Part shown: piece after piece, positions 7,898 through 28,776 of the stretch
How positions within the stretch are numbered: the first letter of the stretch is position 1
How the letters are laid out: each line of letters opens with the position of its first letter
DNA from: a virus
Taxonomy: Duplodnaviria > Caudoviricetes
Length of the DNA stretch: 64,000 nt
Direction: 5' to 3' (one strand)
Virus record (IMG/VR): IMGVR_UViG_3300021387_001709
Coordinates: 1 to 64,000 of that record
Translations under genes and position numbers: made by a program
The notes under the pieces: generated by a model
Seen by the model: the letters and a program-made list of their open reading frames with translations, nothing else
What the model was told of the DNA's origin: nothing
Database searches by the model: none

Positions 7898-8296
7898 ATG
7901 GTAAGAATTATTATTTGCGGTTCACGAGAATTTAATGATTATGCCAAACTTTGCCGAGTAATGGATAATATTGGGATCCATTCTATTGCTAACAACGATT
8001 ATGTCGAAATTATCAGCGGTCATGCGAGAGGAGCAGATATGGTCGGCGAAAAATTTGCCAATCAGTATGGTTATCCACTCAAGGTGTTTCCGGCTGATTG
8101 GAATACTTACGGTAAATCTGCCGGAATGATAAGAAATCGCCAGATGGCCGACTATGCTGCCCAGGCAGACGAAGCAATTGTGGTTGCGTTTCCAATCGGA
8201 GCAAGCCGGGGAACTCGCAATATGATTGACACATCCAGAAAGCATGGATTCGAAGTATATGTAATCGAGGAGAACGATGATGTCGAAGCCGATTGA
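7898..8296 (+). CDS. SLOG-family (YspA/DUF2493-like) protein
   Basis: IIICGSREF, IISGHARGAD, GKSAGMIRNRQM, SRGTRNMI. Confidence 0.85.
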   Translation: MVRIIICGSREFNDYAKLCRVMDNIGIHSIANNDYVEIISGHARGADMVGEKFANQYGYPLKVFPADWNTYGKSAGMIRNRQMADYAAQADEAIVVAFPIGASRGTRNMIDTSRKHGFEVYVIEENDDVEAD

Positions 8297-8941
8297 TTGG
8301 GAACTAATCGACCATTTTATTAATAAATATAGTGAAATTAAGAATGATAGTAATTCTAATTTCATGACGACAGTGAGCATGTTATATGCTATTATATTTA
8401 TTTTGGATTACTATCAAATAAGTAGATCGGACCTTGGAGAAGAACGCTTAAGTAAAATTATATAAGGAATACGGCAATGGTAAATAGAATTAAACGGTTT
8501 ATTAAACAGCTGTTATGTCACCATGAGTACCACATAATCCGCTGGCACTATACTCATGGGGTGATGAATAACAATCCTGCGTTTATCGAAGGATTAAAAA
8601 TATGTGCTATATGCGGTAAGCGGAAGTATTTTTATTGCTCCCAAAGTAGTAAACTTGGAAAGTATATAGTGACTTGCTTGCAAGGACGACAGTGGTAAGG
8701 AGAATTAGTATGATGAAGGTTAAAGATTTATTTGCGGGTATTCTATTACCGAGTGCAATTGTTCTACTGCTCATTGAAGACGGCGATTTTGTAGGCATAT
8801 TTGAAGCTAAAAACTATCCGGTGCAATATGCATGGTGGGAAGTAACCGGTGTATCCAGTGATTACTTCGAGGGTGATAGCCCGTTCAACGGATCGGTGGT
8901 TAAGGTATGGATTAAAGAATCGGATGAAGAAGAGTAATATC

Positions 8942-9136
8942 TCGGCGGTAGACAAGCACTCAAAGTCGAGAAGACAATGTTAGCCTCGGGAAAGGGACAC
9001 AGGGGAGAGACACCCCAGAGGGCATAGACTAAAAATTGTATTTGCGAATACCCCTCGAACTATGGTGCAACCCGGAAGAGGATGCGTGTGATTGAGGTGT
9101 GGGATAAACCGCGCCGACTGCACACCCGCCGAACCA
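8942..9136 (+). ncRNA. 195-nt tRNA-shaped RNA with encoded 3'-ACCA and expanded anticodon and T regions
   Basis: 7-bp TCGGCGG/CCGCCGA plus ACCA; TA then D-arm GAC-AAGCACTCAAA-GTC; GTGTG/CACAC stem; internal hairpins; intergenic and GC-rich. Confidence 0.6.
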
Positions 9137-9160
9137 GATAATTATAAAAGGAGAAGAGAT

Positions 9161-9985
9161 ATGCCTATACATGATGAAATTGGGACAAGAATGAAAAAGT
9201 ATTACGAAGAAATCCCCAAGACAAGATTAATGAGACGCTGTCCAGTGATCGTGAGAATTGATGGCAAAGCATTCCACAGCTTCACTAGAGGATTTAAGAA
9301 ACCGTTTGATGAAATACTAATCAAATCCATGCAAGAAACCATGAAATATCTCTGTGAGAATATACAGGGATGTGTTCTTGGATACCATCAATCAGATGAG
9401 ATTAGTCTTTTGCTAATAGACTACCAAACACTTAATTCCCAGGCATTCTTTGATTACGAGGTACAAAAGATTTGCAGTATTACTGCTTCGATGGCAACGT
9501 TGGCATTTAATAAATTTTTTTCTAATAACGTCCAAGACTTTGGATATGATTGTTGCGATGATACACTTGGAGAAGAAGTAAACACTGGAAGAGAAGAAGA
9601 CTATCATAGATTTGAAACTGTGTATATGAAGAAACTTCATAAAGCGATGTTTGATAGTCGATGCTTCAATCTGGTGAAGGAGGAATGCACAAATTATTTT
9701 TACTGGCGTCAACTCGATGCCACCCGTAACAGTATCCAGATGGTGGGACAGGCGAACTTCTCGCATAAAGAACTCCAGGGTAAATCTTGCAACGCTATCC
9801 AAGATATGTTGCACGAGCAGCGAGGAATTAACTGGAATGATTTGCCGACTTATCAGAAGCGCGGCTCTTGTTGTATTAAAGTCGAGGAAACAATAAATGA
9901 TGTTGTTCGTCACAAATGGGTTATTGACAATGAGATTCCGATTTTTACCGGTGATGGTAGACAATATATTGAAAAATTAATTTGA
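9161..9985 (+). CDS. tRNA(His) guanylyltransferase (Thg1-like 3'-5' polymerase)
   Basis: RMKKYYE, RIDGKAFHSFT, YHQSDEIS, FDSRCF, WRQLDATRNSI. Confidence 0.92.
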   Translation: MPIHDEIGTRMKKYYEEIPKTRLMRRCPVIVRIDGKAFHSFTRGFKKPFDEILIKSMQETMKYLCENIQGCVLGYHQSDEISLLLIDYQTLNSQAFFDYEVQKICSITASMATLAFNKFFSNNVQDFGYDCCDDTLGEEVNTGREEDYHRFETVYMKKLHKAMFDSRCFNLVKEECTNYFYWRQLDATRNSIQMVGQANFSHKELQGKSCNAIQDMLHEQRGINWNDLPTYQKRGSCCIKVEETINDVVRHKWVIDNEIPIFTGDGRQYIEKLI

Positions 9986-9993
9986 GGCGCATT

Positions 9994-10551
9994 ATGATTA
10001 GAGGATTATACAAATTTGCCGAGCGATGGTCAGAGTTTGGCTCTGTATATATCGTTTCAGATACACATTTTGACGACACCGACCGGGAACTTATGGGATA
10101 TACGATATCTACTGAACAACATGTTGACGTTATTAAACGTACTGTTCATAAGCCCGACACTCTCATTCATTTGGGGGATGTCGGCAATCCCGAATATCTT
10201 AGAGCAATCCGAGGATACAAAGTTCTGATTATGGGTAATCATGATGAATCAGCCAGTCGATTTAAGCCATACTTCGATGAAATCTACGAGGGACCGGTAA
10301 TAATCGGTCGCAAGCTGATTCTGTCCCATGAACCGGTGGATGTACCCTGGGCGTTCAATATACATGGGCATAATCACAATGACAGCGGTCTTACTGATGG
10401 ACGCCATCTGAATGTAGCTGCCAATGTTATTGATTACAACCCGGTAAATCTCGGTAAATTAATCAAGGACGGTTTGTTGGTTTGCGTTGAAGACATTCAT
10501 CGCATTACTATTGATAACGCTATTAAAAGAAATGAGGAGAAATTATTATGA
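9994..10551 (+). CDS. Calcineurin-like metallophosphoesterase
   Basis: SDTH, HLGD, GNHD, LSHEP, HGHNH. Confidence 0.88.
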   Translation: MIRGLYKFAERWSEFGSVYIVSDTHFDDTDRELMGYTISTEQHVDVIKRTVHKPDTLIHLGDVGNPEYLRAIRGYKVLIMGNHDESASRFKPYFDEIYEGPVIIGRKLILSHEPVDVPWAFNIHGHNHNDSGLTDGRHLNVAANVIDYNPVNLGKLIKDGLLVCVEDIHRITIDNAIKRNEEKLL

Positions 10552-12406: not shown

Positions 12407-12577
12407 TCTGCGGTGGCGGAATAGACATCCACAATCTGGGTAACAGGGAGGATGGTAAAGAAGTGGCGAAACGCCCTTCATTTGTAGACGCTTATACATA
12501 AGGCGCATACTCAGAACGACCAATGACGAGTTGTATTGCAATGGTGCTATATGTGGTGCAAATCCACATCCGCAGAA
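12407..12577 (+). ncRNA. tRNA-like RNA, family A copy 1, with insertions in the D-loop and anticodon region
   Basis: TCTGCGG/CCGCAGA; TGGCGGAATAG..GTAGACGC; T-arm ATGTGG-TGCAAAT-CCACAT. Confidence 0.7.
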
Positions 12578-28655: not shown

Positions 28656-28776
28656 TCTGCGGTGGCGGAATAGGTATACGCTTAAACGTAAGAGCCTAAC
28701 AAACAGGAATTCCAGTTATGGCAAACCGATGATGGCGAATTTGGCTCATGTGAAGTGCAAATCTTCACCCGCAGAT
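28656..28776 (+). ncRNA. tRNA-like RNA, family A copy 2
   Basis: TCTGCGG/CCGCAGA; D-arm GCG-GAATAGGTATA-CGC; GAGCC/GGCTC stem with a large loop; T-arm GTGAAG-TGCAAAT-CTTCAC. Confidence 0.7.

Follow-up and report, generated by a model that had tools for sequence, protein, structure and literature searches.

The 195-base element at positions 8942–9136 (plus strand) of a phage genome is, judging from related sequences, a real gene for a tRNA-shaped RNA that lacks an anticodon, and not a chance arrangement of bases. By the same comparison, it belongs to a family of at least 72 predicted tRNA-shaped RNAs of ruminant-gut phages. The window, that is, the whole stretch of DNA analyzed, comprises the first 64 kb (64,000 nucleotides) of a 189,811-bp phage record in IMG/VR. 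Taken as a whole, the best explanation of the element, which we consider reasonably probable, is that it is the gene for a tRNA-derived, non-decoding RNA of a large phage RNA family. The usual view of phage tRNA arrays is that they supply translation with spare parts; in many large ruminant-gut phages, they would also hold a non-decoding RNA gene with a tRNA handling surface. We could not find the family described in Rfam or in the papers searched; the kind of RNA that it represents, tRNA-like non-decoding phage RNAs, is already known.

The predicted RNA gene and its parts

All features that the original prediction had described were found in the sequence: the 7-bp acceptor-like stem with its ACCA tail, the U8-A9 junction, the GAC/GTC D-arm, the 5-bp T-like stem, and a multi-hairpin stretch in place of the anticodon arm, which amounts to approximately 118 nt of hairpins between the D-like and T-like arms. 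The element and the genes that follow it consist of these parts:

8942–8948, plus strand: 5′ strand (TCGGCGG) of the 7-bp terminal, acceptor-like stem; pairs perfectly with 9126–9132
8949–8950, plus strand: U8-A9 junction; T8 is invariant and A9 at least 90 per cent conserved in 36 members
8951–8967, plus strand: D-like arm with a 3-bp stem, GAC (8951–8953)/GTC (8965–8967), and the 11-nt loop AAGCACUCAAA
8968–8983, plus strand: single-stranded A-rich linker, GAG-AAGACAAU-GUUAG, at the place of tRNA position 26
8984–9000, plus strand: 5′ strand of the long arm, made up of CCUC, internal loop GGGAAA, GGG, a bulged A, and CAC; pairs with 9065–9081
9002–9016, plus strand: distal hairpin 1, GGGG-AGAGACA-CCCC, with a covarying stem
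9018–9057, plus strand: distal hairpin 2, whose stem GAGGG/CCCUC encloses the conserved AUAGACUAAAAAUU together with an inner hairpin, GUAUU-UGCG-AAUAC
9058–9081, plus strand: GAACUAU joiner and 3′ strand of the long arm, made up of GUG, bulge CAA, CCC, GGAA, and GAGG; partner of 8984–9000
9082–9085, plus strand: AUGC, which stands where a tRNA has its variable loop; in 36 members, UGC is invariant, with A at least 90 per cent conserved
9086–9125, plus strand: T-like arm with a 5-bp stem, GUGUG (9086–9090)/CACAC (9121–9125), and a loop of AUUGA, a 20-nt hairpin insert (9096–9115), and GACUG
9126–9132, plus strand: 3′ strand (CCGCCGA) of the terminal stem; abuts the T-like stem with no base between
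9133–9136, plus strand: ACCA tail, specific to the lineage of the window
9161–9985, plus strand: Thg1-like 3′-5′ nucleotidyltransferase gene (Pfam Thg1, E = 1.2e-30; also Thg1C), starting 24 nt after ACCA
9982–10551, plus strand: calcineurin-like metallophosphoesterase gene (Pfam Metallophos_2), located directly after the RNA in locus L081
11228–11755, plus strand: gene for HAD_SAK_2, an RNA-repair-type HAD phosphatase (PF18143, E = 3e-30), of the same cluster; present in L081

The predicted single-sequence fold of the element is only moderately better than those of shuffled sequences (z = −2.75), and related sequences therefore had to decide whether the structure is genuine. A protein-coding reading was rejected, because insertions and deletions between close copies break the reading frame. 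No promoter or terminator stands out around the window copy, and the RNA is therefore probably co-transcribed with its neighbours.

Family members and the conserved frame

Relatives were collected with several complementary searches. A narrow covariance model (R1), built on three near-identical copies, found no match in 76 other Thg1 loci or in more distant phosphoesterase loci, a result that is partly due to the narrowness of R1 and that was rechecked with motif patterns. Four public runs from four studies, including bovine and goat gut metagenomes, contain contigs that match the element, and some rumen runs hold variants too. Many of the matching contigs diverge from the window flanks from approximately 8942–8949 and 9132–9141 outwards, and carry alternative inner parts. 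Scanning metagenomes with a core motif and then with a covariance model yielded the diverged members L099, L091 (the same as L101, L103, and L105), L093, and L095. A scan of IMG/VR with the T-like arm motif GCGTGTGATTG-N(1–31)-ACTGCACAC retrieved 36 contigs, all of them with full members. A further scan, with the D-like loop and linker motif AAGCATTAAAAGNC-N(2–4)-AAGANAAT, retrieved 58 loci; 43 were new, and 33 of those pass covariance model R2 at E ≤ 0.001. In a genome collection, the T-arm pattern gave 21 matches, which is about the number expected by chance (estimated by hand). Four are real, and each lies in a metagenome-assembled genome contig with a phage-type tRNA array; L148 and L160 were rejected as chance matches in coding sequence, and the window-type core pattern had no match in that collection.

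The family thus assembled comprises 72 distinct sequences from uncultivated phage contigs, 98–322 nt in length (median 181). Members from the first search score 37–135 bits with R2, all but three of them at least 84 bits, and the window copy scores 98.7 bits. There is one copy per genome or locus searched, including the phage of the window.

All parts of the frame recur across the family. It begins with the 7-bp terminal stem, U8-A9, and a 3-bp stem that closes a loop with the consensus AAGCAUUAAAA, of which AAGCACUCAAA is the window version. In 36 members, A13, A14, G15, and A21–A23 of the D-like arm are invariant; L004 and L093 have inserts within the D-like loop. The single-stranded linker follows as NNN-AAGA(A/C)AAUA-NN, and its core, AAGA.AAU, is likewise invariant in the 36 members. 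The long arm consists of a helix (P3a), a 4–6-nt bulge on the 5′ side (often GUAC), a second helix (P3b), whose end is GGG-A-CAN paired with NUG-CAA-CCC, and a variable tip. Downstream of the arm lie AUGC and a 5-bp stem, mostly GUGUG/CACAC or GCGUG/CACGC; among members retrieved with the D-loop motif, most retain the C directly 5′ of this T-like stem. The T-like stem runs straight into the 3′ strand of the terminal stem with zero bases between them, which gives a 7+5 arrangement.

The T-like loop is 10 nt long in the family, AUUGA|AACUG (AUUGAAACUG), with an optional hairpin at the bar, and is often split. The hairpin of the window copy is missing from most members and differs in others. Hence, the hairpin that had been noticed in the window exists (20 nt), and its interpretation as a replacement of the T-loop does not hold: it is an optional insert within a loop of the family.

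The base of the long arm is conserved, and the tip ranges from a bare loop in members of 98–103 nt, through the three-way junction of the window, to more than 150 nt. The minimal members (L186, L118, and L119) have an arm of one short hairpin only, with tip loops such as UUAAAGUG or AACUUCA that lack U33, yet hardly a base differs in their D-like loop, linker, and T-like loop. In L081, a short GGGG/CCCC hairpin stands where the window has distal hairpin 2. A different kind of departure is found in L095, in which a plain 8-bp stem, starting at the base after a tRNA-Pro gene, carries the window-type three-way-junction module without D-like or T-like arms; this frame-less variant, too, keeps the linker core.

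An exact 20-base motif sufficed to find the T-like arm in 36 contigs, whose members have a mean column identity of 39 per cent. Such exactness at this level of divergence points to sequence-specific recognition of the putative RNA by something conserved. The loops of the family are conserved more tightly than the surrounding genes.

Covariation of the four helices

All four helices of the frame covary strongly, and two samples drawn with different motifs agree. Specifically, in the sample picked by the T-arm motif (36 members), 98.7 per cent of cells are paired, and two-sided changes are seen in 14 of 20 pairs; none of 500 shuffles equals the family on any of the five measures, and the pairing of slid controls is 27–45 per cent. 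The T stem could not vary in this sample. It does so in the sample picked by the D-loop motif (30 distinct members), in which two-sided changes occur at every one of the five T-stem pairs and seven terminal-stem pairs, as judged from an alignment that was fitted to the model and leans towards it. Variants of the T-like stem in this sample include GCGUG/CACGC, GAGUG/CACUC, GUGAG/CUCAC, and GCUGG/CCAGC. For the terminal stem, two-sided changes at seven of seven pairs were found in both independent samples, and its 7-mers were placed by neighbouring motifs or by the model and never selected for pairing.

The inner helices behave in the same way. The D-like stem occurs as GAC/GUC, GGC/GCC, GCC/GGC, and AAC/GUU. 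In the long arm, GGG/CCC changes to GGA/UCC, and CAC/GUG changes to CAU/AUG and CGU/ACG; the 5′ and 3′ strands of the same member pair with −11.1 kcal/mol, compared to −7.7 kcal/mol for strands taken from different members (P = 3e-13). Distal hairpin 1 changes its stem to GAGG/CCUC or AAGG/CCUU with the loop unchanged (L106, L108, L123, and L134), and the stem of distal hairpin 2 becomes GGAAG/CUUCC in L099 and AAAGG/CCUUU in L091, L093, and L095. The proposal of a structured RNA with the outline of a tRNA is therefore borne out by covariation among homologs, which was present in each of the frame helices and in both samples.

Genomic context

Most family members lie among tRNA genes. tRNA genes are present in 54 of 71 loci, and all 596 tRNAs of the member loci are on the same strand as the RNA (0 on the opposite strand). 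The nearest tRNA is within 20 nt for 24 members and within 500 nt for 46; for example, L112 lies 2 nt after a tRNA-Met gene, L127 lies 1 nt after tRNA-Gln, and L119 lies 4 nt before tRNA-Leu. Because of this close spacing, the boundaries set by the terminal stem behave, at the level of gene layout, like tRNA gene boundaries. No conserved neighbouring protein gene was seen at the examined member loci, and the downstream genes of members located outside arrays are unrelated to one another. Rumen Bacillota are a tentative host assignment, drawn solely from metagenome bins.

The original prediction had drawn attention to the Thg1-like gene, whose family repairs tRNA 5′ ends, as a possible partner. 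The predicted RNA does end 24 nt before this gene (ORF start at 9161), and its metallophosphoesterase neighbour is 86–89 per cent identical in L004 and L081. In L004, the RNA is approximately 93 per cent identical to the window copy, with an extra 18-nt hairpin in the D-like loop, and the Thg1 protein is 71 per cent identical. The proposed linkage did not extend beyond this close relative. Among 78 viral contigs with a related Thg1 protein (49–75 per cent identity), the RNA precedes the gene in L004 only; conversely, a Thg1 gene occurs in one of 71 member loci (again L004), and it is a neighbour in 2 of 72 members. L081 has kept the RNA, with a different inner hairpin, 13 nt before the phosphoesterase gene, and has no Thg1 gene there. 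L126 and L002 share one contig, on which 12.7 kb separate the RNA from the Thg1 gene, and no such RNA was found at more distant phosphoesterase loci. On these counts, the Thg1-like gene appears to be a neighbour and no conserved partner, with no sign that the putative RNA serves the Thg1-like enzyme, so that family-level numbers correct a tempting tie. Given that the family resides mostly inside tRNA gene arrays, the position of the window copy beside the Thg1-like gene looks like a local accident; in the lineage of the window, the gene appears to have moved from a tRNA array into a cluster of RNA-repair-type genes.

The encoded CCA end, which had been taken as a defining feature of the element, is confined to 4 of 72 members: the window, L004, and L081, which form one clade, and the unrelated L169. 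By our own estimate, a single CCA clade among dozens of lineages would be the chance expectation. The discriminator position is not conserved either (T in 33, A in 26, G in 7, and C in 5).

Relationship to known RNAs

Database searches returned no known family. ARAGORN detected no tRNA or tmRNA at the element in the window, and Rfam 15, at gathering scores and at E ≤ 10, gave nothing relevant for the window element, a minimal member, L113, or the L105 insert, so that the element stands outside the families described in these resources, as had been suspected. Searches by blastn with the core and with a minimal member gave no true match in 50,697 GenBank phage records. No RNA-sequencing run was found to contain the element; one run labelled as metatranscriptomic (X20), which was flagged as probably DNA, holds two short variant contigs that we excluded as expression evidence. 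A description of the family was not found in the literature searched, with a comparison to the 10,006 candidate viral RNAs of PMC10690425 left aside.

Family members resemble tRNAs (RF00005) in their 7-bp acceptor-type stem stacked on a 5-bp T-type stem, both of which covary; at the sequence level only, in U8, A9, a D-type stem at positions 10–12, bases of the A14/G15/A21 type, and the C before the T stem; and in the placement of their genes in tRNA arrays, on the same strand and with tRNA-like spacing. Unlike tRNAs, they have no anticodon arm, 7-nt anticodon loop, or U33, and have the linker and long arm instead; a 13–16-nt A-rich insert follows the D stem; and CCA, the discriminator base, and pair 3:70 are not conserved, with no tRNA match in ARAGORN or in Rfam at E ≤ 10. 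The elbow signature is also missing: the D loop AAGCAUUAAAA lacks G18G19, and the 10-nt T loop AUUGAAACUG takes the place of the 7-nt UUCRANY. An L-shape of the predicted RNA is only assumed here, because its loops lack the G18G19/UUCRA elbow signature. Overall, the family looks like a derivative of a tRNA that falls outside both the tRNA and the tmRNA families.

The family shares with tmRNA a large inner domain in place of the anticodon arm, enclosed by a tRNA-like acceptor/T helix. In contrast to tmRNA, pair 3:70 is G-C, A-U, C-G, or U-A and never G:U, and there is no tag frame and no canonical T loop. ARAGORN and Rfam do detect genuine tmRNAs within two of these arrays (L095 and L134) but none at the family element, and the suggestion of a mini tmRNA-like RNA is not supported.

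Phage T4 offers the nearest analogues, its species 1 and 2 RNAs (rnaC, 139 nt, and rnaD, 119 nt). These stable, non-coding RNAs without assigned function are likewise encoded in a phage tRNA cluster, at its end and on the strand of the tRNAs. rnaC even ends in a T-arm-like hairpin, but that hairpin is a canonical GGUUCGAAUCC T arm, which is absent from the family. The T4 tRNA cluster also holds segB, a gene for a GIY-YIG homing endonuclease (PMC2330249). Model R2, run over the T4 tRNA region with filters off, reached at best 9.1 bits, on a tRNA gene; by this measure, the analogues are not homologs.

Other RNAs share individual traits with the family. In YrlA, the Ro-binding stem is built from the two ends of the RNA, with the tRNA-like part lying inside. 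Unlike YrlA and other bacterial Y RNAs, which are tRNA-mimicking partners of Ro60/Rsr, the ends of the family RNA form the acceptor-like stem, and there was no Rfam match to Y RNAs; no TROVE gene was present among the neighbours tested. A survey of jumbo phages lists Thg1 with other RNA-repair genes and names a tRNA-like partner only for Ro/TROVE (PMC7824862). ROOL and GOLLD are structured phage and prophage RNAs with no known function that often lie by tRNA islands, and ROOL was first obtained from cow rumen (bioRxiv 10.1101/2024.12.08.627333). They differ from the family in being 580–800+ nt long, not tRNA-shaped, and assembled into multimeric cages, and no Rfam ROOL or GOLLD match was obtained here. 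Within the genome of the window, two anticodon-less tRNA-Leu-shaped RNAs (at 12407 and 28656) similarly combine a tRNA upper body with variable folded inserts that replace the anticodon arm. Their 5′ half is of the GCGGUGGCGGAAUAG-type class II tRNA-Leu kind and their T loop has 7 nt, whereas a AAGCAUUAAAA D loop, an A-rich linker, and a 10-nt T-like loop mark the family.

Proposed biogenesis and role, and alternative explanations

RNase P and 3′ tRNA-processing enzymes need little beyond a stacked acceptor/T helix. From what is established about these enzymes, we consider it likely that the RNA is transcribed with its neighbours, that these enzymes cut it out by recognizing the stacked 7+5 helix, and that CCA is added afterwards, except where it is encoded, as in the window. 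What the mature RNA would then do is a more tentative matter. It may act as a tRNA mimic that occupies a conserved host or phage tRNA-handling factor through its near-invariant D-like loop, linker, and T-like loop, a role to which we give appreciable weight while holding it to be somewhat doubtful; the variable arm would be an expansion or cargo. The near-invariant loops could equally serve catalysis or RNA–RNA contacts. A broader and more speculative generalization would make the family a class of tRNA-derived phage RNAs with a re-engineered elbow and core, which are delivered by tRNA processing, capture a conserved factor of the host or phage tRNA or translation machinery, and use the arm as an evolvable expansion slot. 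Homing-endonuclease ORFs of two kinds (GIY-YIG and HNH) interrupt the gene in other phages, a fate that conserved genes can meet, and this generalization, with the same rather low probability, includes the idea that strong conservation has turned the gene into a homing site for both kinds. If an RNA mimic indeed blocks or recruits a tRNA-binding factor, it would constitute a new kind of RNA-based phage tool against the host. The small size of the family RNA (approximately 100 nt at minimum), its clear covariation, and its fixed frame make biochemical testing easy.

The main rival to a mimic reverses the roles of frame and arm: the tRNA-like frame would be a carrier only, which provides processing and stability as a laboratory tRNA scaffold does, and the arm would be the working module (an aptamer, a protein-binding domain, or a ribozyme). 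The arm may be the working part, and the frame a mere carrier, because L095 bears the distal core without the frame, on its plain stem after tRNA-Pro, and arm tips do recur in conserved classes, such as the AGAGACA hairpin with the AUAGACUAAAAAUU junction of the window, L099, L091, L093, and L095. However, a mere carrier would not need the 22 bases of the T-like arm that are invariant across diverged phages, and in the minimal 98–103-nt members, the arm is short and the frame loops and linker are nearly unchanged. We consider this carrier role unlikely. Action in cis has a considerably smaller probability still. A leader, riboswitch, or tRNA punctuation that sets the 5′ end or expression of a downstream mRNA, in place of a stable trans-acting RNA, would fit the short distances to the next gene (24 nt to Thg1 in the window, 13 nt to the phosphoesterase in L081, and approximately 20 nt to an ORF in L099) and the probable co-transcription suggested by the lack of an outstanding promoter or terminator. 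Yet tRNA genes flank most members, which have no downstream ORF, the downstream genes that do exist are unrelated, and punctuation requires the acceptor/T helix only, not the invariant loops and linker.

A role as substrate, decoy, or cofactor of the Thg1-like 3′-5′ polymerase or of the RNA-repair cluster, as the original prediction had envisaged in part, appears very improbable. Besides the 24-nt spacing, this explanation could draw on the metallophosphoesterase and HAD_SAK_2 phosphatase in the same cluster, on the order of RNA, phosphoesterase, and HAD_SAK_2 genes that is kept in L004 and L081, and on the encoded ACCA, which is found in exactly the window, L004, and L081 (the first pair of L081 being C·A). 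These three linked cases form one recent clade and hence represent one event, against which stand 77 of 78 related Thg1 loci without the RNA, 70 of 71 member loci without Thg1, the 12.7-kb separation on the L126/L002 contig, the persistence of the RNA in L081 without Thg1, and the more distant phosphoesterase loci that lack the RNA. The least probable explanation, to which we assign hardly any weight, is a mobile DNA element or target cassette of homing endonucleases, whose copies would be similar through recent transfer and not through RNA function. Near-identical copies with unlike flanks do occur in many metagenomes, and some copies carry the inserted GIY-YIG and HNH ORFs; but compensatory changes maintain four helices at 39 per cent mean column identity, which selection on DNA alone fails to explain, each genome or locus searched has a single copy, and no terminal repeats or target duplications were seen. 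The tRNA-derived, non-decoding RNA remains our preferred reading.

Other sequence resemblances

Several further identities were considered for parts of the element. A resemblance to the raiA motif RNA was dismissed after the Rfam raiA model gave no match at E ≤ 10 over 8800–9300. A stop-codon mimic formed by UAG, UAA, or UGA at positions 8–10 was also rejected, as U8-R9-R10 is the plain tRNA consensus. The idea of a group I intron was prompted by AGACUAAA and by the inserted endonuclease ORFs; AGACUAAA resembles an R element by eye only, and the idea was given up, since neither the window element nor the L105 insert matched Intron_gpI at E ≤ 10. In members without an insert, the T-like loop equals the 8-nt handle AUUGAAAC (CRISPR-DR9, E = 7.6). 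A crRNA-handle mimic or RNA anti-CRISPR was nevertheless rejected, since the AUUGAAAC handle is split after AUUGA by inserts in the window and in many members. Finally, the GGG-AAA-GGG-ACACA-GGGG succession recalls a G-quadruplex, yet its tracts take part in covarying helices.

Insertions within family RNA genes

Two kinds of insert carrying endonuclease-type reading frames interrupt genes for the anticodon-less, tRNA-shaped family RNA, each at a different place in the fold (L-numbers denote contigs or loci with family members).

L105 about 5140-4100, minus strand: interrupted family RNA gene; same sequence in L091, L101 and L103
L120:8787-8954: intact allele of the L105 gene
L179 931-1159 and downstream, minus strand: family member with split T-like loop
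L198:859-1088 and downstream: family member with split T-like loop

In one phage (L105), approximately 870 nt break up the gene directly 3' of the D-like hairpin, whereas in L120 the flanks are identical and the gene is unbroken. The insert carries a GIY-YIG homing-endonuclease ORF, which is open only if in-frame TAG codons are read through, and Rfam identified no group I intron in it. The junction would fit ...GUCAAU/insert...CUG/AAGAAAAUAAAGC, and the end of the insert bears AAUCUGGUGUGCAG, the exact complement of the last 14 bases of the family RNA.

In L179 and L198, approximately 520 nt interrupt the T-like loop after AUUGA, at the position where other family members have a hairpin. Past the insert, the loop continues as ...AUUGAAACUGCACAC, followed by the terminal strand. 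We read the insert ORF (MAQIKNYSGYEFFEDGRVYSYK...) as a putative HNH-type endonuclease-like protein.

The T-like loop, AUUGAAAC (e.g. L118:9552-9572), is identical in sequence to the 5' handle, 8 nt long, that many type I and type III crRNAs carry, and its comparison with Rfam CRISPR-DR9 gave an E-value of 7.6. In many family members the motif is divided by inserts, and for this reason we judged the likeness to be a chance match.

Neighboring motifs and RNAs

In two phages (L108 and L113) the family RNA is immediately preceded by a second conserved motif, AUCGAAGCnAGUUUCUnAACAGCCCUCUUCGAGGC, which has no match in Rfam, and a third phage (L184) has a variant of the motif within its T-loop insert.

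L108:5037-5085, plus strand: motif
L113, just 5' of the family RNA, minus strand: motif
L184, within the T-loop insert: motif variant

Of the tRNA arrays that include the family RNA, two also have phage-encoded tmRNAs, and many contain a CUA-anticodon tRNA (labeled 'tRNA-Pyl' by ARAGORN), which fits TAG-recoded phages.

L095:398-691, minus strand: tmRNA, tag ANDYALAA
L134:673-985, plus strand: tmRNA, tag ANYEYRMAA
L105:3286-3361, L111:1426-1501, L112:2643-2718, L119:1467-1540, L133:4966-5055: CUA-anticodon tRNAs

Further features of the window

Besides the RNA at 8942-9136, the window phage encodes two anticodon-less RNAs shaped like tRNA-Leu that belong to a different family. Its non-decoding tRNA-shaped RNA genes thus number at least three and represent two families.

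12407-12530: tRNA-Leu-shaped RNA
28656-28776: tRNA-Leu-shaped RNA
7898-8296: YspA/YAcAr SLOG-domain gene

The SLOG-domain gene precedes the family RNA by approximately 650 nt and forms one same-strand gene run with the Thg1-like, phosphoesterase and HAD_SAK_2 genes.
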